From NCBI RefSeq assembly GCF_036971445.1, contig NC_091473.1:205220001-205284000 (forward strand): a DNA stretch of 64,000 nt, read 5' to 3'. Every line of letters starts with the position of its first letter. Position 1 is the stretch's first letter. The position numbers were made by a program, and so were the translations under genes. This document shows positions 481 to 23,175 of the stretch, piece after piece. Source of the stretch: Narcine bancroftii. Its lineage: Eukaryota. Below the pieces are notes generated by a model, which saw only the letters and a list, made by a program, of their open reading frames with translations, had not been told where the DNA came from and made no database searches.

Positions 481-1094
481 ACAGGAGAGAGCAACGTGGA
501 AGCAAAATCTCATAGAAATGCTGGAGCAACACAGCCGGTGCTGCAGAACCCAAAAGGAGGGAAAGATACCTCACCGATATTTCGGGTCTGAGTCCTTCTT
601 CAATGAATAAGAAAATCTCCTGAATGTGTTAAAATTAAGACTGCAGACTGACCGGTTTTGTTGGGGGGGTGGGGGGGGGGGTGGTGAGGGAGAGGGGCAG
701 TTCAAAGCGACAGTTGATAATTGGCTATGGAAGGTAAAGAGATGAGAATTGATTTTGTTTCTGTCAACGGGGACAGAGGGAAACTCACATAGACCGAGAC
801 ACAGAATGNNNNNNNNNNNNNNNNNNNNNNNNNNNNNNNNNNNNNNNNNNNNNNNNNNNNNNNNNNNNNNNNNNNNNNNNNNNNNNNNNNNNNNNNNNNN
901 NNNNNNNNNNNNNNNNNNNNNNNNNNNNNNNNNNNNNNNNNNNNNNNNNNNNNNNNNNNNNNNNNNNNNNNNNNNNNNNNNNNNNNNNNNNNNNNNNNNN
1001 NNNNNNNNNNNNNNNNNNNNGGGAGAGAGAGGGCCGCGGGGAAATGCAAAAGTGGGAAGAATTAATTGTTTATCCTGACTTCTCCCCCTTTCAG

Positions 1095-1433
1095 TTGTTT
1101 GCTGATTTTGTGGACCGATCCACTTGGCGAACCTCTGACTGATTGGGTAGCTTGCGTCCCTCCCGGTTCAGCGCAATTTCTCGCATATTACATTCATTGC
1201 GTGTTTCGTTCAGACACAAATTGAAATATCGTGGCCCATATATTAAATGCTTAAAAATTATAACCGAGACGACGTGGTTCTGCCTCACGTTTGACTGGAC
1301 AGGATGACGTTAGAGAAAAGGGGCTGGATATTTCACCTCAATACGTCGAAAACGTTTGTAGCGGACTTGATGGTTTATCTCAGGGCGGTGTGGCTCACGC
1401 TGTTCTTTGGAAATAGCTGGACGCACAAATCGT
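1095..1433 (+). pseudogene. Degenerate TCR V pseudogene (family B) with RSS
   Basis: FR3 remnant (gacaggatgacgttagagaaaaggggctggatatttcacctcaat) is homologous to the other family-B Vs. RSS: cacgctg (1396-1402), 22 nt, acaaatcgt (1425-1433). Confidence 0.7.
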
Positions 1434-1662
1434 ATGTGGTTTGAAATGAAACGCGAGAAAGAGGATGCTAGAGCACGTGAGGGATTGCTTAATGTTGAAC
1501 AGGTGAAAATGTGAGACAGAGTGAGCGTCAAGAATAGAACGAAAGAAGGAGAAAGGGGGAGAGGGAGGAGATTAAAAAAAGGGTAGATGCGGGGAGTGAA
1601 CAGGTAGAGGGTTCGTGAAGCGAGGGGAACGCGATGCAAACTGTCTTCACTAACGCGTTCTA

Positions 1663-1692
1663 ATTGGTTGGATAATGACCACACCAACCAAT
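1663..1692 (+). promoter_or_regulatory. Inverted CCAAT-box dyad in the putative V promoter (homologues precede every distal leader on the + strand)
   Basis: ATTGGTTGG-12 nt-CCAACCAAT, ~120 nt upstream of the leader ATG at 1813. Homologues at ~6786-6817, 8926-8955, 11875-11904, 17006-17038, 19135-19167, 20441-20470 and 22851-22882. Confidence 0.55.
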
Positions 1693-1812
1693 CCTGTATG
1701 ATGGAAACACTCTGATATATGTCCAAAGTGTTAGACCGCTCATAACATCGCCCCACCAATTGTACTGCGGTAACATAAGGAAACCTTCGTTGATGATCTT
1801 AATCCACATACC

Positions 1813-2616
1813 ATGTTCTTCGTGAATGGTTTGGTGATTCTTTGGGCCGTTCTGACTAGTGAGCATGTCTGACTGGTCAGCGACTTCTGCCCATTGTCCT
1901 CTCTCTACAAATCTCTAGCTTTAAACTAATTAAAGACGGACAAATTCCCCAACTTCCTTTGCTCTTCCTTGCACCTTCTTCCTCCGCTTACTCATTTACA
2001 CACTCTCTGTGTTTACTGAACTTCCTCGCGGTTTCACTGTCGCACTCCTTCCCCACCTCTCTCGCTCTTCGCCATTTTCGTACGAGGGAAACGGGGACAC
2101 ATACAGAGTTTCTGCTGCTCCCGACGTGGGTACGCAACCTGATACCTCCGAATTTAGACCGGTCATCATGTTCCTACTGATTTGTTGGCTGATTATATGC
2201 ACCGTTCCGCCTGTGGAGACTAACTGGTCAACTAGTGCCGCGCGGGTTCAGTGCCATCCAGCGGCGTTCACACATTTTGTTTTGTTCCAGGGGCGAGGGC
2301 AAAGGATTCGGTGACACAAAGCCCGCCGCAAATGTTAGTGGATAAAGGGCAGATCGTATCAATGAAATGTAGTTACTTGATTAGCCCCGACACTAATTTT
2401 TGGTACATTCAATATCCCGGAGAATCTCCAAAATATTTGGCGAAAATCTACACGTCCCGAATCGTGGTTCAGACTCACGATTGTCCTGAGAAAATAACGC
2501 GTTATTTGGTGAAAAAGGTAATGAAATCCCACCTCAACATCTCTGAAAGCCTTGTGGCGGAATCCGTCGTGTATCTCACGCAGCTGCCAATGGGCTGGCA
2601 GATCCACACAAAAAAC
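1813..2616 (+). pseudogene. TCR alpha/delta-like V segment (family A) lacking the second conserved Cys: leader 1813-1858, V exon 2291-2576, RSS 2577-2616
   Basis: Leader MFFVNGLVILWAVLT followed by gtgagc; acceptor tttgttccag. The V exon reads DSVTQ..MKCSY..FWYIQYPGESPKYL..SHLNISESLVAESVVY then runs straight into heptamer cacgcag, 24 nt, acaaaaaac. The CAV codons are missing. Confidence 0.85.
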
Positions 2617-2919
2617 CGAACCTCATGGAATTTAATCGGACACTGTGGCTCAGGGGCGCACCCGTCAACGGAATGGAAGCGACAGCGCGATCTACCTGAA
2701 GGGCCTGCTATAACGCGGAGTTGCAGGAGATTTGCCATTCTCTGAGCGTTTCTCTTTCTCTGAGTGCTCTTGGTCTGAATTGGAGGTTGGAAGTCAGAGG
2801 AGAGGGTGAAACAGATAGGTATTTGTCAGTATATTGTAGGAAAATGAAGCAATGTTCTTTAGATGGAAGGTGAGAAGTTTAAAAAAATCTTAGCCAGGCG
2901 GGTCGGTGGGACTAGCGAT

Positions 2920-3140
2920 CCCTCAAACCTGTTATTGCTAAAATGAACAACTAGCTCCTTGGTCTTGATGATATTAAAAACATAATTGTCGTTCTCGAAC
3001 CAGCCAAACTGGTTCTCGATCACTATCCTACATTCGGACTCATCGTTTCCATTTATTTGGGCAGCCCTGGTGGCGCCTTCAGCTAATTTGTAGATTGAGT
3101 TTGGGGTGAACTTGGCTGAACATCCATGAGTGAACATGGC
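2920..3140 (-). mobile_element. Rex1/Babar-type LINE RT fragment (copies ~13130-13350 and ~21690-21905)
   Basis: FTHGCSAKFTPNSIYKLAEGAT..INGNDESECR..IEN..W..DN..FNIIKTKELVVHF matches the YTHDC..KFADDTT..NDESEYR..LNVSKTKELVIDF RT consensus. Confidence 0.75.
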
Positions 3141-3499
3141 TAAGGTTGAAGGGAGGGAGAGATTGGCACTGCTCTCGAAAGATTAACTAAGTGGAAGACG
3201 GAGTCGACTCAAGGAAGGAAGTGAAAGAGAACAGGAGAAGCGGCGAGAGGGTGCAGGAAAACATGTGAAGATGAAGGAAAGGGATGAGCAAGAGTGAAGA
3301 AGAGAGAGACATCTGGTGTGTAAATATAGACAAGTAACACGTGGGAAAAAGAGTGAGAATGAGAACGGCCAAGATTAGTAACCAGATTTCATTGGTTCTA
3401 TCACTATTGTGAAGATGTGCGAGGAATGCGCCCTCCTGTGCCTCCTAGAGGATGGGCCGCTACTGACGCGATCCCACAGTCACATATCGGGCGAAGACG

Positions 3500-3983
3500 T
3501 TGAAAGATGCTTCTGTTCATATTCATCCTGGATTCCTTCCCATTCAGTGTTTTTCTGATTCTGTGGGCCGTTCTGCTTGGAGAACCTCTGTCTAATTTGT
3601 CAGCGCGTGTCCCTCCCGGCTCAGACTATTTCCTCGCAGATCTGCACTGCTTGCTTCTTTCCGAAACAAATGGGGAAATGCTGTGACACACGGACATGGC
3701 CGCGGTAAGACAAGAAGTGGCACTGACACTAGTAACCCGAGAGGTGTAACCTTATTTTTTGGAGGCGTTACAATTCCCGTGGACCGCGAGATCTTGGATA
3801 TAACATACTATTCAATGCGTTTCGGTCTCACGATCGTCCGGACAGGATGACGGTTCCTTTGGAGAAAAGGGCCTGGATATTCCACCTCAATGTTTCGAAA
3901 GCTGTTGAAGCGGACTTGGCCGTGTATCTCTGCGCGGTGCCGCTCACACTGTTCTTTGGAAATTGCGGAAATGCACAAAAGCT
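3500..3983 (+). pseudogene. TCR V pseudogene (family B) with mutated splice sites and a well-formed 23-RSS
   Basis: Leader remnant LILWAVLL with a mutated donor. FR3 reads RMTVPLEKRAWIFHLNVSKAVEADLAVYLCAV. RSS: cacactg (3945-3951), 23 nt, acaaaagct (3975-3983). Confidence 0.85.
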
Positions 3984-4049
3984 GATTCTGAAATCGGATG
4001 TGGGTGGAAACAAAACCGGAGACAGAGGACGCGAGACTCAGAGTGAGGC

Positions 4050-6322
4050 AGTCATATGGCAACTCGATCACACTCCCGCCACTCTCTGAGTGGAGGTTCC
4101 CCCTCAACCTTTCCCCTTTCACCATAAAGCGGTGTCCTCTTGTAGTTATCTCTCCAAATCTAAGTTGAAAGAGCCTACTCAATTTTACAGTGTCTACAAC
4201 TCTCTTAAATTAGTAAATCTCAATCAAGCATCCCCTTATTCCTCTACGCTACAAGTCCTAACCTGTGTAATCTTTCCCTGTAATTCAACTCCTGAATACT
4301 CGAAACATCGTAGCAAATCTCTCTGCAGTCTTTCAATCTTAAATATACCCTTCGTATAGTTTGGCGACCAGAAGAGCACACAGAACTCCTAATGTTCTCA
4401 TATTTTCTTTCTTTTTCAATCTTTTTATTATTATTATAGTAATTTATAAACACATACAGTTCAGAGATATAAAAAATACATAGTAAGTAATGAATTAATA
4501 CAGAGATATTAAACAATAATATTACAGAATAAAAATATATCATAAAGTTTTTTTTACATCAGTTTAAGGTGTGAACTATCTCTAAAAAAAAGATATAGTT
4601 AATAACAATATATGAAAAAAGAGAAAAAAATACCCCAAAAAAGAAGAAAAAACAAATCTGAATTAAAAAAACTTTAAAAAAAACTTTAAAAAAACTACAG
4701 ATATAGCTAAACCACGCCGATCACTCCGATCTCAACTTACAGCCCAATTATCATACATAATCATAGAAAGAAAACAGAGCCAGATCAACTCACCACAAAT
4801 GAAAATATTGAATAAATGGTCGCCAGGTTAACTCAAACTTAGAAGGGGATTCATACACAGAGTTTCTAATATTCTCTAAATTTAAACATAGTATAGTTTG
4901 GGTAAACCATTGGAAAACAGTGGGAGGATTAACCTCTTTCCAATTCAATAGTATAGATCTTCTAGCCATTAGTGTAAGAAAAGCAATCATACGATCCGCA
5001 GGAAGAGATAAATAAGTCAAATCTATCATAGGTGCAAAACATTCACTAATAGAGTTTAAAGTTGTTCATAGAGCTCATATGTCTAAAGATAAGCTCCATC
5101 GCTTTTATTCTCATATCGATCCTATATGTGATAAATGTCAATTGGAAATAGCTTCCCTTACACATATGTTTTGGTCCTGTCCCTCTTTACAGAATTATTG
5201 GAAGGAAATTTTTTCCATTATATCTACTGTTTTGAATATTGATTTACAACCACATCCCATTACTGCAATTTTTGGATTACCTATGATAGATTTGACTTAT
5301 TTATCTCATATTTTCTATACTCTTCTCGTAGCTAATTGCTATTTGTTCCCTATACACACTTTACACCTTCTTCACCAGATCGCAAATGTCCTCGAAAACC
5401 AAGGTTCCCTCTGCCTGTTATCTGTGCCTTTAATCGTGACAGGAACGGGCAAAATCTGCTCTCTCAAAATGTCTCATTTGAAGACCTTCCTCTGACTGAA
5501 CACATATTTGCCATTAAACAGATTATTCCAGTCCACTCTTCCTCGATCCTTTCTCATTTCCATAAATTGGCCTCTCACCAATTTATAATATTAACTCGAC
5601 GGTTAGACCTGTCCATATGCATAAGTAAATTGAAAATAAGGACATAAAGTATTGCATCAGCTCTCGTTGGCACCTATATATATTGATTAAGAAATCTTTC
5701 CTGAACACATTTGACAAACGTTAAGCCACCCAGCCCTTTTACCACATGGGGGTCCAGTCAATATATGGAAAATTAAAATCACCTACTATCCCAACTTTCT
5801 GTTTCTTACATCGGTCTGCTTACTCTTTTCATATTTGCACCGTCAATTCTCTTGGACTATTGTACGGTCTATAACACAACCCTTTCAGTGTGGCCGCATC
5901 ATACCCGTTGGTGAACTACATCCATATGGCCTCTGAGGACGAGGCCTGTCCTGTCTAATCTCACTCCTCCCCCTTTCACCCTCCCACATCATGTCTGAAA
6001 GAGAGAATCTAGTCCTACTGCTCCTGCAACCACGTCTCACTAAAGGCAATAACGTCGTGATTCCACGCCTGAAAACCGCCCGCCTTTGTGGCAATACTCG
6101 TTGCATTAAAATAAATAGAACATTTCTATCGTGTGCAAACCTTTGATTTCTGTCTATACACGCAGTCCTCACATGATATTTATCCACGTCCACCTCACTA
6201 TCAGCTCTCACAGTCTGGTTTTCCTCCCCCTACAAATCAAATTTAACCCTCCGGAACAGCATCAGCAAACCTGCCTGCAAGGATATAGGTCCCCTTCCAG
6301 TTCGGATACAAACCCCCTGTCG
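4050..6322 (-). mobile_element. Degraded CR1-type LINE with a nested L1 fragment; it abuts a 5'-truncated V (copy ~14266-16543)
   Basis: Minus-strand remnants LNYRERLHRLGL, GEITTRGHRFMVKGE and ENQGSL-type segments resemble the CR1 ORF2 copies at 58349-61081. Confidence 0.7.
4409..5303 (-). mobile_element. 5'-truncated, 5'-inverted L1 insertion with a 13-bp TSD
   Basis: TSD tctcatattttct at 4396-4408 and 5304-5316. 4409-5033 is the L1 3' end on the minus strand. 5034-5303 is the L1 ORF2 CCHC region (CDKC..LTHMFWSCP) on the plus strand. Confidence 0.85.
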
Positions 6323-6323
6323 G

Positions 6324-6524
6324 ATATATTTGCTGGAAAATCCGCAGCTCAGGGGTAGAGGGTCTGTCTCACTATTGGACGGACAGGATGCAGGGTTCCT
6401 TGGAGAAAAGGGGTCGGATATTCTAAGTCATTATCTCCGGAGATCTTGAAACAGACTTGGCCGTTTGTCTCTGTTCGGTGCGATTCACACGCTTCCTGGG
6501 ATATTGCGGAGGTACACAGGCTCA
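6324..6524 (+). pseudogene. 3' half of a TCR V relic with a degenerate RSS (copy ~16545-16743)
   Basis: atatatttgctggaaaatc...ggacaggatgcagggttccttggagaaaagg...gacttggccgtttgtctctgttcggtg is homologous to V FR2-FR3. It is followed by cacacgc, 23 nt, acaggctca. Confidence 0.65.
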
Positions 6525-6936
6525 TTCTGAGATGGGATGTGGTTAGAGAGAAAAGGGGAGAAAGAAGTGAATAAGCGTGTTGAGATTGAGAAAGGTTAAG
6601 CAGGTGAAAGAGTGAGACAGAGTGAGGTAGAACTGTAGAAAGAATGAAGGGGTGAGGCGGAGGAGTGAGGGAAAGCGAGGGAGGAGATACAAAGAGGGCA
6701 GGAGAAAGACGCGGGAAGTGGACATAGAGGGAGAAACTGAGCGAAGGACGGGGAACGAGATGGGGATTGTCTTATCAACTCAGTCTGGTTGGATCAATTA
6801 TGCCCACACGAACCAATCCTGTGTGAGGTAAACACTCTCATATCTGGCCCAAGCGTCATTTCGCTTAAAACATCGCCCCACCCTGGTACAGCGGTAACAC
6901 AGGGAAATCTTCGCTTTAGACCTTAATCCGTGTACC

Positions 6937-7571
6937 ATGACCCTCCTGAGTTGTTTGCTGATTCTGTGGGCCTTTCTGACTGGTGAGACTGTCTGATTGG
7001 TCAGCGACGTCTATCCATCGTCTTTTCTCTTTGTATCTCCAGCTTTAACCTCATGAAAATTGACAATTCCCCAAAATGTTGCTTCGGACTTGGAATCGCG
7101 CTTTTATATAATCGAGCATTTGTAAAATATTCTTCCTCCGATTTGAGTCCGGGCATCATTTTCCTACTGTGCTGTTGGCTGATGCTTTGCACCGTTCTGC
7201 CTGGTGAGAGTGATTGGTCAACAAGTGTCCAGTGGGATCAGCGCGATTAACACCTTCTGTTTTGTTCCAGGGGCGAGTGGGAACGACTCAGTTAGTCAAG
7301 ACCCCACGGAATTGGTGGTCTATGAAGGGCAGATCGTATCACTGTGCTGCAGTTACTCGAAGAGCCTAACGGCATATATTTGGTACATTCATCATCCTGG
7401 AAAATCTCCCAAATATCTGCTGAAAATCTACGCGTCAGGAGAGGCGTTTCCGTCTCCAGATTGTCCGGAGAGGATATCGGGTATATTGGAGAAAAAGAGT
7501 CAGAAATCCCACCTTAACATCTCTAAAAGCCTTGTAGAAGATTCCGCCGTGTATCTCTGTGCAGTGAAGCA
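6937..7571 (+). CDS. TCR alpha/delta-like V gene segment, potentially functional: leader 6937-6982, V exon 7271-7571
   Basis: 46-nt leader MTLLSCLLILWAFLT(G) with donor gtgaga and acceptor ttccag. Open V exon GASGNDSVSQ..SLCCSYS..WYIHHPGKSPKYLLKI..DSAVYLCAVK retains Cys-Trp-Cys and is followed by an RSS. Confidence 0.88.
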
Positions 7572-7610
7572 CACGGTGTTCCTGAGCAGTGGCAGATCCG
7601 TACAAAAAAC
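7572..7610 (+). promoter_or_regulatory. Recombination signal sequence (23-RSS)
   Basis: cacggtg, 23-nt spacer, acaaaaaac (consensus CACAGTG-23-ACAAAAACC). Confidence 0.9.
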
Positions 7611-8192
7611 GTAGCACACGAAATTTAATCGGACGCAGTTGGTCGGGGGCGCCTTCGATCACGGAATGGAAGCGGCAGCGCGACCTTCTTGGAGGGTCTG
7701 CAGGAACGTGGAGTGTGTTGAGATCTGCCCTCCTCTGATCGTTTCTCTCTCTCTGCGTGCTCTGTGTCTGAGGTGAGAGGTTGGAAGTCTTGAAGAAATA
7801 GACAGCTATTTGCTGGAATATTGTACTTAAACGATCGATTGTTGTTTAGATAGATGGGAGGGAGAGGTTATCACTACTCTCGAAAGGTTAAATAAGTGTA
7901 AGAGGGAGTCGAGTCGAAACAGAACGGGAGAAGCGGCGAGGGGGCCCAGCAAAACAAGAGGAGGTGATGGGAAGGGATGAGCGAGAGTGAAGAAGATAAA
8001 GACGTGGGGAGTGTAAATGTAGACAGCGAAACACGAGAGAATATGACTGAACATGAGAACAGCCAACATTAATAACTAGTTTCCATTGGTCCAGTAACTG
8101 CGCCCTATTGAGCCGATGTGCGAGGAGGGCGCCCTCCCGTGTATCCTAGAGGATGGGCCGCCACTGACGCGACCACCCAGTCTTCGACTAAA

Positions 8193-8680
8193 ATGTTGAA
8201 ATATTCGCTGTTTATCTTCATGCTGGTTTCGTCCCCATTCAGTTATTTGTTGATTCTGTGGGCCGTTCAGCTTGGTGAGCCTCTGACAGATTGGTCAGCG
8301 CGTGTCCCTACCGGCTCAGCGCAATTCTTCTCATATCTTGCACTGCGAGCTTCATTCCAGGAACAAAAGGGGGAATGTAGTAACACACGGAAATGTCTGC
8401 GGGACGTCAAGCAGAGTCACTGACACTACTTACCCCACAAGTGTTACCTTATATCTTTGGGACGTTAAAATCCCCGTGGATCGTCAAATCTTGGATATAA
8501 CATCCAGTTCGATGTGGTTCAGACTCATGATCGTCTGGACAGGATGACGGTTACATTGGAGAAAAGGGTCCGGATATTACATCTCAATATCTCGAAAGCT
8601 CTTGAAGCCGACTTGACCGTGTATATCTGTGCGGTGCGGCTCACGCTGTTCTTTGGAAATTGCGGTGACGCACAAAACCT
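8193..8680 (+). pseudogene. TCR V pseudogene (family B), frameshifted, with intact splice sites and 23-RSS
   Basis: Leader ..YLLILWAVQL(G) followed by gtgagc; acceptor at 8360; early stop and frameshifts. FR3 reads LHLNISKALEADLTVYICAVR. RSS: cacgctg (8642-8648), 23 nt, acaaaacct (8672-8680). Confidence 0.85.
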
Positions 8681-9084
8681 GATTCTGAAATCGGATTTGG
8701 GTCTAATCAAAACGGGAGGAAGAGGACGGGAGATCATGTTAGTGATTGGGAAAGGCCGAGCAGGTGAAAATGTTAGATAGAATGAGCTAGAGGAATAGAA
8801 TGAAAGAAGCGGAGAGAGGGAGCGAGGGAGGAGATAAAAAGACGGAAGACACTGGGACTGCACAGATAGAGGGAGAAACCGTGAAAGGAGAGCTCGATGA
8901 AGACTGTCTTCTCAACGCGGTCTTATTGGTTCACGAATGAGATCATCAACCAATCCTAGGTGAAGGAAACGCATTCATTTCTGACCCAGGGTGTTTGTCC
9001 GCTCATAACATCGACCGATCCGTATTTCCCTATGTTCAGCTGTAATACGGGGAAATCTTCGCCTTTGACCTTAATCCGCAGATC

Positions 9085-9293
9085 ATGGCTGTTGTGTGTT
9101 TTTTGCCGATTCTTTGGGTCGTTTTGACTGGTGAGCATGTCCGATATGTTACCATCCCCGGTAGTCCACGTGTTTTTAACTTTAACATTAGTAAAGTTAG
9201 ATGAGTTCCCCCCAAGAATCAAACTCCTTAGCTCTCCCTTCGTTTACTCGTTTACTCGTTCACTGTCTACGTACTGATCTACGTCGCGCGCCC

Positions 9294-9359
<66 letters not shown>

Positions 9360-9914
9360 CTCGCCATTCTAATGAGAGAGAAACAAGTCCAGTCTCCAAA
9401 AGACATTTTTCAGCATCCGACTTGAGTTTGCGACCTTGTGTCGGGCGAGCATTTAGAAAATTTCTTTCTTCCGAATTGAAGCGGAGCATCATGTTCCTCC
9501 TGAAGATTGGGCAGAATCTTAGGGCCGATCTGCCAGCTGAGACAGATTGGTCAACAAGTGTCGCGCGGGTGTAGTACGTTCCAGTGGTGTTCACTCATTC
9601 TGCTTTGTTCCAGGGGCCAGTGCGAATGATTCAGTGACACAAAGACCGCCGGAAATGATAGTCGATGAAGGGCAGTTTGTGGAACTGAACTGTAGTTACT
9701 CGAAGACAACCTACGCTTATTTTTGGTACATTCAACATCCCGGAGAATCTCCAAAATATTTGCTGAAAATCCAACGGTCAGGAGACGTGTTTCCTTCTCG
9801 CGATTGTCCTGAGAGGATATCGGGTTCCTTAGAGAAAACGAGCCAGAGATTCCACCTTAATATCTCACAAATCCGCGTGGATGATTCCGCCGTGTATCTC
9901 TGCGCCGTGGAGCT
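9085..9914 (+). CDS. TCR alpha/delta-like V gene segment, potentially functional: leader 9085-9130, V exon 9614-9914
   Basis: Leader MAVVCFLPILWVVLT(G) followed by gtgagc. Open V exon GASANDSVTQ..VELNCSYS..FWYIQHPGESPKYLLKI..FHLNISQIRVDDSAVYLCAVE. Confidence 0.9.
9297..9352. repeat. (CT)n microsatellite in the V intron (shorter in the copy at ~19516-19552)
   Basis: Seen directly in the sequence. Confidence 0.95.
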
Positions 9915-9952
9915 CACGCTGTTCCAGGGCGGCGGGGATCTGCACAAAAACT
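9915..9952 (+). promoter_or_regulatory. RSS with a 22-nt spacer
   Basis: cacgctg, 22 nt, acaaaaact. Confidence 0.85.
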
Positions 9953-11306
9953 CACCTCGAGAATTGTCATCACGCGCGGTGGCTTGGGGGCGCTCTCGGT
10001 CCCCAGAAGCCAGTTCTGTCAGTCAGATTAATAGAAGGGTGAAGTCAACGCCGAGGTGCTGGAGATTTTCCCTCATCTTGCGTTTCTTTTTCTCTGCATC
10101 CGTTTCGTTTCTTTGAGGTTGAAGGTAGGATGACAGCGAGGGAGAAAAAGTGAACAGCTGTTTCCCAGAATATAGTGGGAAAAGGGAAGTTATGTTTTTG
10201 TGATGGAAATTGAGAAGTTGATAAAGGCGGCGCGGGTAGGGCAAGAGCGTGGCCACACATTCATGAGTGCATATGGCATAGAGTAGGGGACAAAGCAGGC
10301 ATTGATGCGTGGTTCTGATCATCGTAGAGGAGGTGATGTTGCCGATGAGCACTGTTGGGGGCTTCCAATGAGGATGTCACAGATCCAGTAACAGATGGCT
10401 GGACAAAGTACCGGATCCTTTAGATTGGTCATCCGCTTTGCAACTGTGTGTGCGTTGAACGCCGGGCATTAGTCCTTGAACAGCAAACCCACCATGGTAT
10501 TTCAGCGGTATAGGTGATTTAATAAAGAGTGGACCGTCAACGGTAGCGGTGGGGGTGGGGGTCGGTCGTCACTTGTGGCGACGGGCGATGGGCGAATTGA
10601 AGTGTGTCCAGTTCCTTCAAGTGATAGGTGTTAATGCGCTCGATAACCAAACGGCGAAAACATTTCCTCCAAGTCCGTTAACTTGCTCCTGATGGGCAAC
10701 AGGAGAGAGCAACGTGGAAGCAAAATCTCATAGAAATGCTGGAGCAACACAGCCGGTGCTGCAGAACCCAAAAGGAGGGAAAGATACCTCACCGATATTT
10801 CGGGTCTGAGTCCTTCTTCAATGAATAAGAAAATCTCCTGAATGTGTTAAAATTAAGACTGCAGACTGACCGGGTTTGTTGGGGGGGGGGGGGGTGAGGG
10901 AGAGGGGCAGTTCAAAGCGACAGTTGATAATTGGCTATGGAAGGTAAAGAGATGAGAATTGATTTTGTTTCTGTCAACGGGGACAGAGGGAAACTCACAT
11001 AGACCGAGACACAGAATGNNNNNNNNNNNNNNNNNNNNNNNNNNNNNNNNNNNNNNNNNNNNNNNNNNNNNNNNNNNNNNNNNNNNNNNNNNNNNNNNNN
11101 NNNNNNNNNNNNNNNNNNNNNNNNNNNNNNNNNNNNNNNNNNNNNNNNNNNNNNNNNNNNNNNNNNNNNNNNNNNNNNNNNNNNNNNNNNNNNNNNNNNN
11201 NNNNNNNNNNNNNNNNNNNNNNNNNNNNNNNNGGGAGAGAGAGGGCCGCGGGGAAATGCAAAAGTGGGAAGAATTAATTGTTTATCCTGACTTCTCCCCC
11301 TTTCAG

Positions 11307-11645
11307 TTGTTTGCTGATTTTGTGGACCGATCCACTTGGCGAACCTCTGACTGATTGGGTAGCTTGCGTCCCTCCCGGTTCAGCGCAATTTCTCGCATAT
11401 TACATTCATTGCGTGTTTCGTTCAGACACAAATTGAAATATCGTGGCCCATATATTAAATGCTTAAAAATTATAACCGAGACGACGTGGTTCTGCCTCAC
11501 GTTTGACTGGACAGGATGACGTTGGAGAAAAGGGGCTGGATATTTCACCTCAATACGTCGAAAACGTTTGTAGCGGACTTGATGGTTTATCTCAGGGCGG
11601 TGTGGCTCACGCTGTTCTTTGGAAATAGCTGGACGCACAAATCGT
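11307..11645 (+). pseudogene. Degenerate V pseudogene (duplicate of 1095-1433)
   Basis: Near-identical copy; RSS heptamer 11608-11614, nonamer 11637-11645. Confidence 0.7.
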
Positions 11646-12024
11646 ATGTGGTTTGAAATGAAACGCGAGAAAGAGGATGCTAGAGCACGTTAGGGATTGC
11701 TTAATGTTGAACAGGTGAAAATGTGAGACAGAGTGAGCGTCAAGAATAGAACGAAAGAAGGAGAAAGGGGGAGAGGGAGGAGATTAAAAAAAGGGTAGAT
11801 GCGGGGAGTGAACAGGTAGAGGGTTCGTGAAGCGAGGGGAACGCGATGCAAACTGTCTTCACTAACGCGTTCTAATTGGTTGGATAATGACCACACCAAC
11901 CAATCCTGTATGATGGAAACACTCTGATATATGTCCAAAGTGTTAGACCGCTCATAACATCGCCCCACCAATTGTACTGCGGTAACATAAGGAAACCTTC
12001 GTTGATGATCTTAATCCACATACC

Positions 12025-12828
12025 ATGTTCTTCGTGAATGGTTTGGTGATTCTTTGGGCCGTTCTGACTAGTGAGCATGTCTGACTGGTCAGCGACTTCT
12101 GCCCATTGTCCTCTCTCTACAAATCTCTAGCTTTAAACTAATTAAAGACGGACAAATTCCCCAACTTCCTTTGCTCTTCCTTGCACCTTCTTCCTCCGCT
12201 TACTCATTTACACACTCTCTGTGTTTACTGAACTTCCTCGCGGTTTCACTGTCGCACTCCTTCCCCACCTCTCTCGCTCTTCGCCATTTTCGTACGAGGG
12301 AAACGGGGACACATACAGAGTTTCTGCTGCTCCCGACGTGGGTACGCAACCTGATACCTCCGAATTTAGACCGGGCATCATGTTCCTACTGATTTGTTGG
12401 CTGATTATATGCACCGTTCCGCCTGTGGAGACGAACTGGTCAACTAGTGCCGCACGGGTTCAGTGCCATCCAGCGGCGTTAACACATTTTGTTTTGTTCC
12501 AGGGGCGAGGGCAAAGGATTCGGTGACACAAAGCCCGCCGCAAATGTTAGTGGATAAAGGGCAGATCGTATCAATGAAATGTAGTTACTTGATTAGCCCC
12601 GACACTAATTTTTGGTACATTCAATATCCCGGAGAATCTCCAAAATATTTGGCGAAAATCTTCACGTCCCGAATCGTGGTTCAGACTCACGATTGTCCTG
12701 AGAAAATAACGCGTTATTTGGTGAAAAAGGTAATGAAATCCCACCTCAACATCTCTGAAAGCCTTGTGGCGGAATCCGTCGTGTATCTCACGCAGCTGCA
12801 GATGGGCTGGCAGATCCACACAAAAAAC
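12025..12828 (+). pseudogene. V segment lacking the second Cys (duplicate of 1813-2616): leader 12025-12070, V exon from 12503, RSS 12789-12828
   Basis: Same structure and the same CAV deletion. Confidence 0.85.
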
Positions 12829-13715
12829 CGAACCTCATGGAATTTAATCGGACACTGTGGCTGAGGGGGGCACCCGTCAACGGAATGGAAGCGACAGCGC
12901 GATCTATCTGAAGGGCCTGCTATAACGCGGAGTTGCAGGAGATTTGCCATTCTCTGAGCGTTTCTCTTTCTCTGAGTGCTCTTGGTCTGAATTGGAGGTT
13001 GGAAGTCAGGGGAGAGGGTGAAACAGATAGGTATTTGTCAGTATATTGTAGGAAAATGAAGCAATGTTCTTTAGATGGAAGGTGAGAAGTTTAAAAAAAT
13101 CTTAGCCAGGCGGGTCGGTGGGACTAGCGATCCCTCAAACCTGTTATTGCTAAAATGAACAACTAGCTCCGTGGTCTTGATGATATTAAAAACATAATTG
13201 TCGTTCTCGAACCAGCCAAACTGGTTCTCGATCACTATCCTACATTCGGACTCATCGTTTCCATTTATTTGGGCAGCCCTGGTGGCGCCTTCAGCTAATT
13301 TGTAGATTGAGTTTGGGGTGAACTTGGCTGAACATCCATGAGTGAACATGGCTAAGGTTGAAGGGAGGGAGAGATTGGCACTGCTCTCGAAAGATTAACT
13401 AAGTGGAAGACGGAGTCGCCTCGAGGAAGGAAGTGAAAGAGAACAGGAGAAGCGGCGAGAGGGTGCAGGAAAACATGTGAAGATGAAGGAAAGGGATGAG
13501 CAAGAGTGAAGAAGAGAGAGACGTCTGGTGTGTAAATATAGACAAGTAACACGTGGGAAAAATAGTGAGAATGAGAACGGCCAAGATTAGTAACCAGATT
13601 TCATTGGTTCTATCACTATTGTGACGATGTGCGAGCGAGGAATGCGCCCTCCTGTGCCTCCTAGATGATGGGCCGCTACTGACGCGATCCCACAGTCACA
13701 TATCAGGCGAAGACG

Positions 13716-14199
13716 TTGAAAGATGCTTCTGTTCATATTCTTCCTGGATTCCTTCCCATTCAGTGTTTTTCTGATTCTGTGGGCCGTTCTGCTTGGAGAA
13801 CCTCTGTCTAATTTGTCAGCGCGTGTCCCTCCCGGCTCAGACTATTTCCTCGCAGATCTGCACTGCTTGCTCCTTTCCGAAACAAATGTGGAAATGCTGT
13901 GACACACGGACATGGCCGCGGTAAGACAAGAAGTGGCACTGACACTAGTAACCCGAGAGGTGTAACCTTATTTTTTGGAGACGTTACAATTCCCGTGGAC
14001 CGCGAGATCTTGGATATAACATACTATTCAATGCGTTTCGGTCTCACGATCGTCCGGACAGGATGACGGTTCCTTTGGAGAAAAGGGCCTGGATATTCCA
14101 CCTCAATGTTTCGAAAGCTGTTGAAGCGGACTTGGCCGTGTATCTCTGCGCGGTGCCGCTCACACTGTTCTTTGGAAATTGCGGAAATGCACAAAAGCT
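13716..14199 (+). pseudogene. Family-B V pseudogene (duplicate of 3500-3983)
   Basis: ADLAVYLCAV, then cacactg (14161-14167), 23 nt, acaaaagct (14191-14199). Confidence 0.85.
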
Positions 14200-14624
14200 G
14201 ATTCTGAAATCGGATGTGGGTGGAAACAAAACCGGAGACAGAGGACGCGAGACTCAGAGTGAGGCAGTCATATGGCAACTCGATCACACTCCCGCCACTC
14301 TCTGAGTGGAGGTTCCCCCTCAACCTTTCCCCTTTCACCATAAAGCGGTGTCCTCTTGTAGTTATCTCACCAAATCTAAGTTGAAAGAGCCTACTCAATT
14401 TTACAGTGTCTACAACTCTCTTAAATTAGTAAATCTCAATCAAGCATCCCCTTATTCCTCTACGCTACAAGTCCTAACCTGTGTAATCTTTCCCTGTAAT
14501 TCAACTCCTGAATACTCGAAACATCGTAGCAAATCTCTCTGCAGTCTTTCAATCTTAAATATACCCTTCGTATAGTTTGGCGACCAGAAGAGCACACAGA
14601 ACTCCTAATGTTCTCATATTTTCT

Positions 14625-15522
14625 TTCTTTTTCAATCTTTTTATTATTATTATAGTAATTTATAAACACATACAGTTCAAAGAGATATAAAAAATACATA
14701 GTAAGTAATGAATTAATACAGAGATATTAAACAATAATATTACAGAATAAAAATATATCATAAAGTTTTTTTTACATCAGTTTAATGTGTGAACTATCTC
14801 TAAAAAAAAGATATAGTTAATAACAATATATGAAAAAAGAGAAAAAAATACCCCAAAAAAGAAGAAAAAACAAATCTGAATTAAAAAAACTTTAAAAAAA
14901 AACTTTAAAAAAACTACAGATATAGCTAAACCACGCCGATCACTCCGATCTCAACTTACAGCCCAATTATCATACATAATCATAGAAAGAAAACAGAGCC
15001 AGATCAACTCACCACAAATGAAAATATTGAATAAATGGTCGCCAGGTTAACTCAAACTTAGAAGGGGATTCATAGACAGAGTTTCTAATATTCTCTAAAT
15101 TTAAACATAGTATAGTTTGGGTAAACCATTGGAAAACAGTGGGAGGATTAACCTCTTTCCAATTCAATAGTATAGATCTTCTAGCCATTAGTGTAAGAAA
15201 AGCAATCATACGATCCGCAGGAAGAGATAAATAAGTCAAATCTATCATAGGTGCAAAACATTCACTAATAGAGTTTAAAGTTGTTCATAGAGCTCATATG
15301 TCTAAAGATAAACTCCATCGCTTTTATTCTCATATCGATCCTATATGTGATAAATGTCAATTGGAAATAGCTTCCCTTACACATATGTTTTGGTCCTGTC
15401 CCTCTTTACAGAATTATTGGAAGGAAATTTTTTCCATTATATCTACTGTTTTGAATATTGATTTACAACCACATCCCATTACTGCAATTTTTGGATTACC
15501 TATGATAGATTTGACTTATTTA
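14625..15522 (-). mobile_element. Duplicate of the 5'-inverted L1 fragment
   Basis: TSD tctcatattttct at 14612-14624 and 15523-15535. Confidence 0.85.
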
Positions 15523-17157
15523 TCTCATATTTTCTATACTCTTCTCGTAGCTAATTGCTATTTGTTCCCTATACACACTTTACACCTTCTTCACCAGATC
15601 GCAAATGTCCTCGAAAACCAAGGTTCCCTCTGCCTGTTATCTGTGCCTTTAATCGTGACAGGAACGGGCAAAATCTGCTCTCTCAAAATGTCGCATTTGA
15701 AGACCTTCCACTGACTGAACACATATTTGCCATTAAACAGATTATTCCAGTCCACTCTTCCTCGATCCTTTCTCATTTCCATAAATTGGCCTCTCACCAA
15801 TTTATAATATTAACTCGAGGGTTAGACCTGTCCATATGCATAAGTAAATTGAAAATAAGGACATAAAGTATTGCATCAGCTCTCGTTGGCACCTATATAT
15901 ATTGATTAAGAAATCTTTCCTGAACACATTTGACAAACGTTAAGCCACCCAGCCCTTTTACCACATGGGGGTCCAGTCAATATATGGAAAATTAAAATCA
16001 CCTACTATCCCAACTTTCTGTTTCTTATATCGGTCTGCTTACTCTTTTCAGATTTGCACCGTCAATTCTCTTGGACTATTGTACGGTCTATAATACAACC
16101 CTTTCAGTGTGGCCGCATCATACCCGTTGGTGAACTACATCCATATGGCCTCTGAGGACGAGGCCTGTCCTGTCTAATCTCACTCCTCCCTCTTTCACCC
16201 TCCCACATCATGTCTGAAAGAGAGAATCTAGTCCTACTGCTCCTGCAACCACGTCTCACTAAAGGCAATAAAGTCGTGTTTCCACGCCTGAAAACCGCCC
16301 GCCTTTGTGGCAATACTCGTTGCATTGAAATAAATAGAACATTTCTATCGTGTGAAAACCTTTGATTTCTGTCTATACACGCAGTCCTCACATGATATTT
16401 ATACACGTCCACCTCAATATCAGCTCTCACAGTCTGGTTTCCGTCCCCCTACAAATCAAACTTAATCCTCCGGAACAGCATCAGCAAACCTGCCTGCAAG
16501 GATATAGGTCCCCTTCCAGTTCGGATACAAACCCCCTGTCGGATATATTTGCTGGAAAATCCGCAGCTTAGGGGTAGAGGGTCTGTCTCACTATTGGACC
16601 GACAGGATGAAGGGTTCCTTGGAGAAAAGGGGTCGGATATTCTAAGTCACTATCTCCGGAGATCCTGAAGTGGACTTGGCCGATTGTCTCTGTTCGGTGC
16701 GATTCACATCCTTCCTGGGATATTGCGGAGGTACACAGGCTCATTCTGAGATGGGATGTGGTTAGAGAGAAAAGGGGAGAAAGAAGTGGATAGAGGTTGT
16801 TGAGGATTGAGAAAGGTTAAGCAGGTGAAAGAGTGAGACAGGGTGAGGTAGAACCGTAGAATGAATGAAGGGGTGTGACGGAGGAGTGAAGGAATGCGAG
16901 GGAGGAGATACAAAGAGGGCAGGAGAAAGACGCGGGAAGTGGACATAGAGGGAGAAACTGAGCGAAGGACGAGGAACGAGATGGGGATTGTCTTATCAAC
17001 TCAGTCTGGTTGGTTCAATTATGGCCACACGAACCAATCCTGTGTGAGGTAAACACTCTCATATCTGGCCCAAGCGTCATTTCGCTTAAAACATCGCCCC
17101 ACCCTGGTACAGCGGTAACACAGGAAAATCTTCGCTTTAGACCTTAATCCGCGTACC

Positions 17158-17802
17158 ATGTCCCTCCTGAGTTGTTTGCTGATTCTGTGGGCCTTTCTGA
17201 CTGGTGAGACTGTCTGATTGGTCAGCGACGTCTATCCATCGTCTTTTCTCTTTGTATCTCCAGCTTTAACCTAATGAAAATTGACAATTCCCCAAAATGT
17301 TGCTTCCGACTTGGAATCGCGCTCTTATATAATCGAGCATTTGTAAAATATTCTTCCTCCGATTTGAGTCCGGGCATCATTTTCCTACTGTGCTGTTGGC
17401 TGATTGTTTGCGCCGTTCTACCTGGTGAGAGTGATTGGTCAACAAGTGTCCAGTGGGATCAGCGTCACCCCGCGCGATTAACACCTTCTGTTTTGTTCCA
17501 GGGGCGAGTGGGAACCACTCAGTTAATCAAGACCCCACGGAATTGGTGGTCTATGAATGGCAGATCGTATCACTGAGCTGCAGTTACTCGAAGATCCAGA
17601 CGGCATACATGTGGTACATGCATCATCCTGGAAAATCTCCCAAATATTTGCTGAAAATCTACGCGTCAGGAGAGGCGTTTCCGTCTCCAGATTGTCCGGA
17701 GAGGATATCGGGTATATTGGAGAAAAAGAGTCAGAAATCCCACCTTAACATCTCTAAAAGCCTTGTGGAAGATTCCGCCGTGTATCTCTGCGCAGTGAAG
17801 CA
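17158..17802 (+). CDS. TCR alpha/delta-like V gene segment, open frame (paralogue of 6937-7571): leader 17158-17203, V exon 17502-17802
   Basis: Leader MSLLSCLLILWAFLT(G). Open V exon with Cys/Trp/Cys, although a conserved FR1 Gly is changed to Trp. RSS: cacgctg (17803-17809), 23 nt, actaaaaac (17833-17841). Confidence 0.8.
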
Positions 17803-18403
17803 CACGCTGTTCCTAAGCAGTGGCAGATCCGTACTAAAAACGTAGCACACGAAATTCAATCGGACGCAGTGGGTCGGGGGCGCCCTCGATCACGGAATGG
17901 AAGCGGCAGCGCGACCTTCTTGGACAGTCTGCAGGAACGGGGAGTGTGATGAGATCTGCCCTCCTCTGATCGTTTCTCTCTCTCTGCGTGCTCTGTGTCT
18001 GAGGTGAGAGGTTGGAAGTCTTGAAGAAATAGACAGCTGTTTGCTGGAATATTGTACTTAAACGATGGAGTGTTGTTTATATAGAAGGGAGCGAGATGTT
18101 AAATAAGTGTAAGAGGGAGTCGAGTCGAAACGGAACGGGAGAAGCGGCGAGGGGACCCAGGAAAACAAGAGAAGGTGATGAGAAGGGATGAGCGAGAGTG
18201 AAGAAAATAAAGACGTGGGTAGTGTAAATGTCGACAGAGAAATACGAGCGAAAATGATTGAAAATGAGAACAGCCAACACTAATAACTAGATTCCATTGG
18301 TACAGTAACTGCGCCCGATTGAGCCGATGCGCGAGGAGGGCGCCCTCCTGTGTGTCATAGAGGATGGGCCGCCACTGACGCGACCACCCTGTCTTCGACT
18401 AAA

Positions 18404-18891
18404 ATGTTGAAATATTCGCTGTTTATCTTCATGCTGGCTTCCTCCCCATTCAGTTATCTGTTGATTCTGTGGGCTGTTCGGCTTGGTGAGCCTCTGACAG
18501 ATTGGTCAGCGCGTGTCCTCGCCGGGTCAGCGCAATTCTTCGCATATCCTGCACTGCGAGCTTCATTCCAGGAGCAAATGGGGAAATGTAGTAACACACG
18601 GAAATGTCTGAGGGAAGCCAAGCAGAGTCACTGACACTAGTTACCCGACAAGTGTTACCTTATATTTTTTGGTCGTTAAAATCCTCGTGGATCGTCAAAG
18701 CTTGGATATAACATCCAGTTCGATGTGGTTCAGATTCACGATCGTCCGGACAGGATGACGGTTACATTGGAGAAAAGGGTCCGGATATTACATCTCAATA
18801 TCTCGAATGCTCTTGAAGCTGACTTGGCCGTGGATATCTGCGCGGTGCGGCTCACACTGTTCTTTGGAAATTGCGGTGATGCACAAAACCT
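18404..18891 (+). pseudogene. Family-B V pseudogene (paralogue of 8193-8680)
   Basis: Frameshifted; ADLAVDICAVR; RSS cacactg (18853-18859), 23 nt, acaaaacct (18883-18891). Confidence 0.85.
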
Positions 18892-19295
18892 GATTCTGAA
18901 ATCGGATGTGGGTGGAATCAAAAAGGGAGGAAGAGGACGGGAGATCATGTTAGTGATTGCGAAAGGCCGAGCAGGTGAAAATGTTAGATAGAATGAGCTA
19001 GGGGTATAGAATGAAAGAAGGGGAGAGAGAGAGCGAGGGAGGAGATGAAAAGAAGGAAGACACGGGGACTGTACAGATAGAGGGAGAAACCGTGAAAGGA
19101 GAGCGCGATGCAGATTGTCTTCTCAAAGCGGTCTGATTGGTTCACAAATGAGATCATCAACCAATCCTATGTGAAGGAAACTCATTCATTTCTGACCCAG
19201 GTTGTTTGTCCGCTCATAACATCGACCGACCCGTATTTCCCTATATTCAGCAGTAATACAGGGAAATCTTCGCATTTGACCTTAATCCGCAGATC

Positions 19296-19513
19296 ATGGC
19301 TGTTGTGTGTTTTTTGCCGATTCTTTGGGTCGTTTTGACTGGTGAGCATGTCCGATATTTTACCGAACTCTGTCCATCCCCGTAGTCCACGTGTCTTTAA
19401 CTTTAACATTAGTAAAGTTAGATGAGTTCCCCTCAAGAATCAAATTCCTTAGCTCTCCCTCCGTTTACTCGTTTACTCGTTCACTTTCTACTTACTGATC
19501 TACGTCGCGCGCG

Positions 19514-19553
<40 letters not shown>

Positions 19554-20153
19554 GTCGCTCCTCGCCATTCTAATGAGAGAGAAACAAGTCCAGTCTCCAA
19601 AAGACATTTTTCAGCATCCGACTTGAGTTTGCGACCTTCTGTCGGGTGAGCATTTAGAAAATTTCTTTCTTCCGAATTGAAGCGGAGCATCATGTTCCTC
19701 CTGAAGATTGGGCAGATTCTTAGGGCCGTTCAGCCAGCTGAGACAGATTGGTCCACAAGTGCCGCGCGGGTGCAGTACGGTCCAGCGGTGTTCACTCATT
19801 CTGCTTTGTTCCAGGGGCCAGTACGAATGATTCAGTGACACAAAGACCACCGGAAATGATAGTCGATGAAGGGCAGTTTGCGGAACTGAACTGTAGTTAC
19901 TCGATGACAACCTACGCTTATTTTTGGTACATTCAACATCCCGGAGAATCTCCAAAATATTTGCTGAAAATCTAGCTGTCAGGAGACGTGGTACCTTCTC
20001 GCGATTGTCCTGAGAGGATATCGGGTTCCTTAGAGAAATCGAGCCAGAGATTCCACCTTAATATCTCACAAATCCGCGTGGATGATTCCGCCGTGTATCT
20101 CTGCGCCGTGGAGCTCACGCTGTTCCAGGGCGGCGGGAATCTGCACAAAAACT
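19296..20153 (+). pseudogene. V pseudogene with a single in-frame stop (paralogue of 9085-9952): leader 19296-19341, V exon 19815-20115, RSS 20116-20153
   Basis: TAG at 19973-19975 where the paralogue has CAA; otherwise intact. Confidence 0.9.
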
Positions 20154-20590
20154 CACCTCTAGAATTGTCATCACGTGCGGTGGCTTGGGGTTGCTCTCGG
20201 TCCCCAGAAGCCAGTTCTGTCAGTCAGATTAATAGAAGGGTGTAGTCAACGCCGAGGTGCTGGATTGCTTAATGTGGAACAGGTGAAAATGTGAGTCAGA
20301 ATGAGCTTCAAGAATAGAACGAAAGAAGGAGAGAGTGAGCGAGGGAGGAGATAAAAAAGGGTAGATGCTGAGAGTGTAAAGGGAGAGGGTTCGTGAAGCG
20401 AGGGTAATGCAATGCAAACTATCTTCACTAACGCGATTATATTGGTTGAATAATGACCAAACCAACCAATACTGTGTGAAGGAAACACTCTCATATCTGT
20501 CCCAAGTGTTAGACCACTCAAACCATTGCCCCACCATTTGCACTGCGGTAACATAAGGAAATCTTCGCTGATGATCTTAATCCATATACC

Positions 20591-21383
20591 ATGTTGTTCG
20601 TGAGTGGTTTGGTGATTCGTTGGGCCGTTCTGACTGGTGGGTCTGTATGAATGGTCAGCGACCACTGCCCATTGTTCTTTCTCTACGAATCTCTAGCTTT
20701 AAACTAATTAAAGACAGACAATTTCCCCAAATTCATTTGCTCTCCCTTGCACGTTCTTCCTCCGCTTACTCATTTACCCACTCTCTGAGTTTACTGAACT
20801 TCCTCCCAGTTTCACTGTCGCTCTCTATCCCCCCTTTCTCGCTCTTTGCCGTTTTCGTGAGAGGGAATCCGCGACACAAATTGAGTTTCTGCTGCTTCCG
20901 ACGTGGGTACGCGACCTGATATGGTCGAGGAATTGTAAAATATCCTTCTTCCGAATTTAGACCGGGCATCATGTTCCGACTGATTTGATAGCTGATTTGA
21001 TTCACCATTCCGCCTGTTGAGACTAATTGGTCAACTAGTGCCGCGCGGGTTCAGTGCCATCCGCCGACGTTCACACATTTTGTTTTGTTCCAGGGGCGAG
21101 GGCGAAGGATTCAGTGACCCAAAGCACGCCGCAAATGATAGTGGATGAAGGGCAGATCATATCAATGAGCTGTAGTTACTTGATTAGCCTCGACACTAAT
21201 TTTTGGTATATTCAACATCCCGGAGAATCTCCAAAATATTTCCTGAAAATCTACACGTCCCGAGTCGTGGTTCAGTCTCACAACTGTCTTGAGAGAATAT
21301 CACGTTCTTTGACGAAACAGAAAATGAAATCGCCTTGTGGAGGATTCCGTCGTGTATCTCAGTGGCAGATCCACACAAAAAGC
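20591..21383 (+). pseudogene. Family-A V pseudogene with an FR3 deletion and loss of CAV and heptamer: leader 20591-20636, V exon from 21094
   Basis: DSVTQ..MSCSY..FWYIQHPGESPKYFLKI; deletion after atgaaatc; gtgtatctc joins directly to the spacer remnant agtggcagatccac and nonamer acaaaaagc. Confidence 0.85.
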
Positions 21384-22130
21384 GAAACTCATGGAATTTA
21401 ATCGGACGCTGTGGCTCGGGGGCGTCTTCGGCAAGGAATGGAAGCGACAGCGCGATCTTCCTGAAGGGCCTGCTATAACACGGAGTTGCAGGAGATTTGC
21501 CCTCCTCTGAGCGTTTCTCTTTCTCTTAGTGCTCTGGGTCTTAGTTGGAGGTTGGAAGTCATGTGGAAAGGAAGAAAGAGATAGGTATTTGTTAGTATAT
21601 TTTAGGAAAATTAAGGAGTGTTGATTAGATGGAAGTTGAGATATTTAAAGTGTAGCAGCCGCGCTGGTGGGTAGGAGTAGTAAGCGGCCCCTCAAACCTG
21701 TTATGGCTAAAATGAACAACTTGCTCCTTGGTCTTGATGATATTAAGAACATAATTGTCGTTCTCGAACCAGCCAAACTGGTTCTCGATCACCATCCTAC
21801 ATTAGGACTCATCATTCCCAATTATTTGGGCAGCCCTGGTGGTGCCTTCAGCTAATTTGTAGATTGTGTTTGGGGTGAAATTGGCAGAATAGCCATGGGT
21901 GAACATGGCAGAGTTTGAAGGGAGGGAGAGATTGGCACTGCTCTCGAAAGATTAACTAAGTGTAAGACGGAGTCGCCTCAAGGAACGAAGCATAACAGAC
22001 CGCGAGAAGCAGATTTAATTGGTCTACGAACGGCGTTCGATTGAGCCGATATGGGAGAAGGGCGCCTTTTTGTGTGTCCTTGAGGATGTGCCGCTACTCT
22101 CGCGCCAATACAGTTTTATATCGGACTAAA

Positions 22131-22600
22131 ATGCTGAAATATTCTCCTGTTTATCTTCATCCTGGCTTCCTCCCCATTCAGTTTTTTCTGCTGATCCTGT
22201 GGGCCGTTCCACTTGTCTGATTAGTCAGCGCGTGTCCCTTCCGGCTCAGCGCAATTCTTCGGGTATCCTAAACTCCGTGTCTCGTTCCAGGAACAAATGG
22301 GGAAATGTAGTGTCACACGGACATGTCCGCGGGAAGGCAGGTAGTGTCACCGACTCTAGTTACCCGACGAATGTAACCTTATATTTGTGGTACGTTAAAA
22401 TTCCCGCTGACAGTGAAATCTTGGGTGTAACATCCTAGTCGATGTGGGTCCGTGTCACGATTGTCCAGCCAGGGTGACGGTTAATTTGGAGCAAAGGGGC
22501 CGGATATTCCACCTCAAAGATCTTGAACCGGCTTGGATGTGTCTCTCTGCGCGGTGCGGCTCACACTGTTCTTTGGAAATTGCGGAGATGCACAAAAGCT
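22131..22600 (+). pseudogene. Family-B V pseudogene with 23-RSS
   Basis: Leader remnant, acceptor cgttccag, ..ctctgcgcggtgcggct, then cacactg (22562-22568), 23 nt, acaaaagct (22592-22600). Confidence 0.8.
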
Positions 22601-22996
22601 GATTCTGAAATCGGATGTGGGTGGAATCAAATCCGGAGACAGAGGACGCGAGAACGGGTTAGGAACTCCTTACGGTCGGGCAGCTGAAAATATTAGATAC
22701 AATGAGCTAGAGGAATAGAATGAAAGAAGGGGTGAGAGGGAGCGAAGGAGGATATAAAAAAGAGGTAAGACTTGGGGTGTATACAGGTAGTGAGAGAAAC
22801 CTTGGTGGAAGAAGGGGAATGTGATGCAGAATGTCTTCTCAACGCCATCTGATTGGTTGACGAATGATAACATCAACCAATCCTGTGTGAAGGAAATATT
22901 CATATCTACCCCAGGCGTTAGTCGCTCATAACATCTTCCTAACACTTGTACAGCTGTAGCACAAGGAAATTTTCTTTTGATCTTAATCCACATACC

Positions 22997-23042
22997 ATGA
23001 TCTTCTTGAATGGTTTGGTGATTCTTTGGGCCGTTCTTACTG
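22997..23042 (+). other. Orphan V leader exon (MIFLNGLVILWAVLT-G) with promoter and intact donor
   Basis: 46-nt ATG exon followed by gtgagt; no intact V exon follows. Confidence 0.8.
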
Positions 23043-23094
23043 GTGAGTCTGTCTGACTGGTCAGCGACCTCAGCCCATTGCCCTTTCTCAACGA

Positions 23095-23107
23095 ATCTCT
23101 CTCACTC

Positions 23108-23175
<68 letters not shown>
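23095..23175. repeat. (CT)n microsatellite
   Basis: Seen directly in the sequence. Confidence 0.95.

Follow-up and report, generated by a model that had tools for sequence, protein, structure and literature searches.

When two leader exons stand before a T-cell receptor (TCR) V exon, which one does the gene use, and how did it come to have two? The question arises in a 64,000-nucleotide (nt) stretch of the Narcine bancroftii genome (assembly GCF_036971445.1, contig NC_091473.1, here C11, positions 205220001-205284000), called the window, in which seven V exons of one family, family A, each follow a distal (D) and a proximal (P) leader exon; positions without a prefix are window positions. Family A functions as a TCR-alpha V family, and the leader it uses is the distal one. 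The transcript support for this is direct but thin: D-V splice joints and in-frame V-J joins occur in contigs from three runs (X1, X2 and X3) of one study, whose RNA status was guessed, none being recorded as RNA. We consider it probable that these V exons are spliced from D, that the D promoter-leader was captured once, from a paralogue since lost, and that the native leader decayed neutrally in each lineage. Single capture followed by neutral decay is the most likely history, although the leader tree does not prove the origin.

Layout of the family-A V genes

Each of the seven V exons has two leader exons of 46 nt in phase 1, and all 14 lie where a sequence-only reading of the window had placed them. 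Its division into intact distal and broken proximal leaders also held at every V. ATG, hydrophobic core and GT donor are all present in the D leaders (7/7), each of which joins its V acceptor in frame (phase 1) across an intron of 288-483 nt (7/7). The P leaders, 67-77 nt away from the acceptor, are defective in 7/7, with an ATT start (7158, 17379), a CT donor and polar residues (9491, 19692), a TG donor (2168, 12380), or three stops and a TT donor (20971). A promoter dyad proposed for all D leaders is borne out in part: CCAAT lies at about -125/-135 in 7/7, and the paired upstream ATTGG is exact in 5/7. In the distal promoters, the ATTGG/CCAAT pair stands back to back at -150/-125. The three V exons previously named as open (7271, 9614 and 17502) do have open frames as well as Cys104 and a recombination signal sequence (RSS), and are the only such exons in the window. 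The family-A features are:

1663-1858, + strand: distal promoter (ATTGG -150, CCAAT -125) and D leader (1813-1858) of the A1 V at 2291
2168-2213, + strand: P leader, donor dead (TG)
2291-2625, + strand: A1 V pseudogene, frame open, Cys104 and RSS heptamer lost
6780-6982, + strand: A2 distal promoter and D leader (6937-6982); joint 6982>7271 in one run-X3 contig
7158-7203, + strand: P leader, ATG>ATT, GT donor retained
7271-7610, + strand: open A2 V, 23-spacer RSS (heptamer 7572); near-identical array copy joined in frame to J
8925-9130, + strand: A3 distal promoter and D leader (9085-9130); a contig of paralogue C11:205638966/205659213 carries joint 9130>9614
9491-9536, + strand: P leader, donor GT>CT, hydrophobic core lost
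9614-9952, + strand: open A3 V, 22-spacer RSS (heptamer 9915); array-type copy joined in frame to J in run X3
12025-12070, + strand: D leader, A1 duplicate
12380-12425, + strand: P leader, donor dead (TG)
12503-12837, + strand: A1 V pseudogene without Cys104 or heptamer
17158-17203, + strand: D leader, A2 duplicate
17379-17424, + strand: P leader, ATG>ATT
17502-17841, + strand: open A2 V, 23-spacer RSS, nonamer with two mismatches
19296-19341, + strand: D leader, A3 duplicate
19692-19737, + strand: P leader, CT donor
19815-20153, + strand: A3 V pseudogene, in-frame TAG, RSS present
20591-20636, + strand: D leader, one L>R change, donor weaker (GTGGGT)
20971-21016, + strand: P leader, three stops and TT donor
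21094-21380, + strand: A1 V pseudogene, 3' deletion

Self-comparison of the window reveals a tandem duplication (1021-10063 versus 11233-20264, 96.7% identity) in an array with a unit of about 10.2 kb. Because the seven V exons were copied within this array, they represent three lineages, A1 (2291, 12503, 21094), A2 (7271, 17502) and A3 (9614, 19815), and not seven separate events. The proposal that P was disabled independently in all seven therefore has to be scaled down to lineages: the lesions differ between them, but the A1 copies share one donor change, GT>TT, to which TG (2168/12380) and the stops (20971) were added later. In order, the repeat unit holds the family-B elements (promoter, leader, and a V that is frameshifted but has an RSS), the D promoter and D; past a pyrimidine-rich stretch and a (CT)n tract it continues with about 100 nt belonging to the P upstream region, then P itself, the V and its RSS.

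The open exons (7271, 9614, 17502) encode a V-set domain with Cys23, Trp41 and Tyr-x-Cys104, and their Protein Data Bank (PDB) matches include TCR alpha chains (for example, 1ac6_A, E 4e-15). The 3' RSS spacer is 23 nt in A2 and 22 nt in array A3 copies (for example, 9915-9952), yet one type with the shorter spacer is seen rearranged. Each gene has one intact leader, the distal, alongside the dead second one, and thus a single functional split leader, which is predicted to act as a signal peptide from its hydropathy and from small residues, judged by eye, at the likely -3/-1 positions. The closest named relatives of the V exons are Leucoraja erinacea XP_055487445.1 (51% identity) and Chiloscyllium punctatum GCC21066.1 (45%). 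Compared at the level of protein models, these skate and bamboo-shark sequences have 15-residue leaders of the same type, and the skate leader ends in Leu-Pro, as P does. Protein searches returned no close annotated orthologue (0 matches in one search and 4 in another; best single-V identity 53%, to an unnamed protein).

The V cluster that holds the window spans approximately 205.15-206.75 Mb of C11. Within this 1.6-Mb locus, 40 stretches were fetched around V matches, and the survey covers 60 stretches of 10 kb in all, plus the window. Among 49 family-A V matches, 8 lack D, P or both and were excluded; of the remaining 41, 35 have an intact D and none has an intact P. Open family-A V exons with acceptor and RSS give the same picture (D intact in 17/18, P in 0/18), and one open V, at C11:205534329, has lost the P donor and most of the P intron. 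Across six units, the spacing between A2 copies is 10.1-10.2 kb. A generic leader scan, whose chance rate is 3.7% (leader-like exons among 300 shuffled windows of 600 nt), found exactly one leader in 35/41 family-A units, in the D position every time. The same scan, which sees intact leaders only, found one donor site in 11 of 16 V exons of other families at the locus and none in 5. The premise that V genes normally have one leader has published exceptions (mouse TRBV12-2/TRBV13-2 and newt L-L-V; see below).

Long leader introns are in themselves not unusual at this locus: in another V family (L010-L011, L026 and L033; for example, C11:205294259), about 490 nt of intron separate the one leader from the V. 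At C11:205285448, a deletion seems to have created a new 40-nt leader. The 5'-most family-A V (L003, C11:205152600-205153270) has lost D to an inserted element that ends in the old intron and that we take to be LINE-1-like. Contigs run unspliced through P of this V at a depth of 36.6, with one loose end matching the insert, which perhaps supplies an antisense promoter.

Transcript evidence for distal-leader use

Three junctions had been predicted (17203>17502 being the third), and the stretches on which contigs were placed take in two of them, 6982>7271 (GT..AG, 288 nt skipped) and 9130>9614 (GT..AG, 483 nt skipped). Both occur, in one contig each, from X3 and X2, respectively, and the same V subfamilies are productively rearranged. 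Upstream of the distal ATG, the two contigs include 16 nt and 64 nt, and transcription presumably starts at the CCAAT-pair promoter. By their difference counts, the first (2/61 and 2/173) corresponds to the paralogue at C11:205196746 and the second (14/109 and 13/137) to that at C11:205638966/205659213.

Three other contigs have loose ends at the V 3' end (7570, 9914 and 9908) that consist of J sequence. All three V-J joins, read by hand, are in frame with the FGxG of the J. They join V directly to J, as expected of TRAV genes, and the J segments lie in this genome at C11:207076516, 207103357 and 207106363, on the same strand and 1.85 Mb downstream; one of the three was located by allowing mismatches, as the query began in N-nucleotides. 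These positions belong to an array of about 40 J segments with 12-spacer RSSs (41 rows listed, the last one false), followed by a C1-like exon near C11:207130368 that has a weak PDB match and that no contig reaches. One paralogue type accounts, in run X2, for a D-V joint as well as a V-J join. The D-V joints and the in-frame V-J joins together identify a working TCR-alpha V family on the distal leader.

Two other accounts of the layout were weighed. That the double leader is an assembly artefact or a chance similarity is barely credible: a tandem array of near-identical units is where such an error might be sought, but the units differ by about 3%, the layout repeats in several clusters over 0.8 Mb and the splice joints are present. 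Active selection against P, either because it offered a rival start or because it formed an out-of-frame cassette exon in the new intron, is a more substantial idea, which we nevertheless judge improbable. No P is intact among 41 at a divergence of only about 0.27, the donor was lost in A1 and A3, and in A2 a pyrimidine-AG acceptor at intron +60 together with the GT of P would, by arithmetic, define a frame-shifting 161-nt exon. However, P retains its GT donor in lineages A0, A2 and A4, its divergence is close to the rate of intron DNA, and one lesion per lineage at such divergence would need no selection. No joints from the P donors (7203>7271, 9536>9614) or to the +60 acceptor (6982>7043) are listed, among contigs too few to give this weight. 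The A1 genes have no contig over them at 88%, which for the same reason carries no weight.

A side product of the locus is visible in unrearranged contigs that run through the A2 RSS and are spliced from a donor 160 nt behind it (7772) to the next V acceptor, 9614. A stop lies behind the A2 RSS, so this read-through gives no two-V protein.

History of the two leaders

Family A forms one clade (100/100) in a V tree of 42 rows with P (one with an internal deletion omitted) and 3 outgroups, and the P lesions track its lineages: a stop at codon 7 in A0, GT>TT in A1, ATG>ATT in A2, GT>CT in A3 and ATG>ACA in A4, plus deletions. The majority P sequence across the five lineages is an intact leader, with ATG, hydrophobic core and GT. 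The sequence-only reading had the native leader lost at least three times; the visible lesions are at least five and lineage-specific, but a single loss of function, after which neutral decay proceeded independently, is the better reading of them. The leader regions of D, P and family B form three groups about 0.5 apart, with within-group distances of 0.25-0.35. As the D-P distance exceeds the within-group distance, the split between the two leaders long predates the family radiation, both leaders were maintained for long, and P lost relevance around the time of that radiation. Cross-lineage divergence (from non-independent pairs) is 0.216 for the D promoter, 0.228 for the D exon, 0.265 for the P exon, 0.310 for the P upstream sequence and 0.296 for introns.

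Capture of an upstream promoter-leader, as had been suggested, is favoured but not proven. The 140 nt upstream of D align with the promoter and 5' untranslated region of family B (z 8.2), whereas those of P do not (z 0.3); the CCAAT pair is absent from P, whose upstream sequence reaches the (CT)n tract after only about 100 nt. In the proposed sequence of events, one event would have set the full promoter-leader of a paralogous V before a V exon, leaving about 100 nt of the native promoter, with the join at or near the (CT)n tract and shortly before family A radiated. Native P would then have decayed neutrally and separately in each lineage, and the layout would have spread as the unit made up of B pseudogene, D, P and V was duplicated in tandem.

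An old intragenic duplication, in which the V doubled its own promoter-leader, long kept both as alternative first exons and dropped P later in each lineage, is unlikely, although several observations suit it. The two leaders share a length of 46 nt and phase 1, their homology is clear, a D+P clade is not rejected by the approximately unbiased (AU) test, no lost V is visible and the P lesions are lineage-specific. It is countered by the 5' region of D, which is closer to family B than to P, and by the bare upstream region of P, and it requires two redundant first exons to have persisted through deep divergence and then been lost in all lineages.

Single capture followed by neutral decay faces difficulties of its own. 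Once the last 40 nt are removed, the upstream likeness of D and B drops to z 1.1, and AU tests of the leader tree reject neither a D+P clade (p-AU 0.317) nor a D+B clade (p-AU 0.209). Compared with V exons, the D-P interval gives no lost-V remnant (z 1.0 or less), no D-type promoter with its own V occurs among 40 genome matches, and dN/dS is alike for D (1.02) and P (0.95). RNA support is thin, coming from one study and from contigs only, with one contig per joint and none spanning leader to J; the contigs derive from paralogues and not provably from the copies in the window; and the C exon is identified as C-alpha by its position after the J array only, its PDB match having E 0.16. The D-P interval was also considered as a V remnant or an inverted spacer, for which the best scores (z 3.4 and 3.1) fall in low-complexity DNA and are unconvincing.

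A bolder version of the capture, on which we are evenly divided, is that a promoter-leader swap at a CT-microsatellite duplication junction founded the whole expressed TCR-alpha V family, made the borrowing obligatory and rewired the transcription and rearrangement (timing and strength) of about 18 open V genes; if so, the dead native leaders would date the family radiation. Six clusters terminate in an orphan D, and a CT-type repeat tract follows in the three that were read (22997, C11:205538223 and C11:205813803), which fits a duplication junction there and is compatible with plain truncation as well.

Flanking features and known systems

The remaining features of the window are the following:

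7772-7774, + strand: donor behind the A2 RSS; unrearranged read-through contigs spliced to acceptor 9614 (runs X1 and X2)
8060-8680, + strand: family-B promoter and leader, V pseudogene with a frameshift, and RSS, amplified together with the distal promoters and lying upstream of them
Near 3330-3983, 13540-14199, 18230-18891 and 21990-22600: further family-B copies
Near 1069, 6202, 11281 and 16421: family-B fragments
22850-23200, + strand: orphan distal promoter plus intact leader (22997-23042), closed by a (CT)n tract and followed by no V; 3' end of the array
23386-23685, - strand: inverted partial copy of a D leader and intron start

Family B (for example, 8221-8680) consists of V pseudogenes with good RSSs, covered by contigs and present in every repeat unit; none of its 17 exons with a clear acceptor is open. 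The intact orphan D at the array end is followed about 540 nt on by an inverted self-copy (22997-23685), as also at C11:205813803-205814494. Two long interspersed nuclear element (LINE) copies, at 25900-29100 and 43700-46950, are 87% alike, and the first has, by eye, an apparent long open endonuclease/reverse-transcriptase frame.

In its basic plan, family A is like a canonical split-leader V gene, described in the accessible text of PMC12227049 as a phase-1 leader exon, a GT-AG intron, a V exon and a 23-RSS, and its spliced product is an ordinary V-alpha domain; unlike that gene, its leader intron contains a fossil second leader. In mouse, according to the accessible part of a preprint (bioRxiv 10.64898/2026.01.30.702900), the TRBV12-2 L-PART1 is spliced to the TRBV13-2 V-EXON in 46,029 of 69,248 TRBV13-2 transcripts. 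There too an upstream leader serves a TCR V exon whose own leader is skipped, but the mouse case, as described there, is facultative: the gene that lends the leader still has a V of its own, and 'true' TRBV13-2 transcripts are also made. In the ray, no V exon lies between D and P, and none of 40 genome matches shows a D-type promoter attached to a V of its own; the native leader is dead in 41/41, and the layout has been amplified to a family and is obligatory. The ray case works like mouse leader borrowing, made obligatory, hard-wired and family-wide. The TRD locus of the newt Pleurodeles waltl has L-L-V and L-V-V units (PMC12698447); the L-L-V unit places two upstream leaders on one V in one haplotype, and the available main-text passages give neither the state of the leaders, which may be in the supplements, nor the origin of the arrangement. 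Unlike the newt unit, the ray layout extends to a whole TRAV family with lineage-specific decay of P. We found no report in the literature of a family-wide, fixed double-leader layout in rays or sharks, subscription papers being mostly beyond reach, and the accessible passages of PMC5931798, PMC10540303 and PMC10972964 contain nothing on double leaders.

The product of these genes is an ordinary TCR alpha chain, and no new immune mechanism is involved; the finding is useful for V-gene annotation and V-gene evolution. The warning that annotation from the nearest leader would discard the three open V exons of the window extends to all 18 open family-A genes with RSS, which would be lost although their subfamilies are rearranged and expressed. 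V promoter-leader cassettes and V exons thus appear as modules that can be reshuffled and fixed across a family, beyond occasional splicing of the kind seen in mouse.

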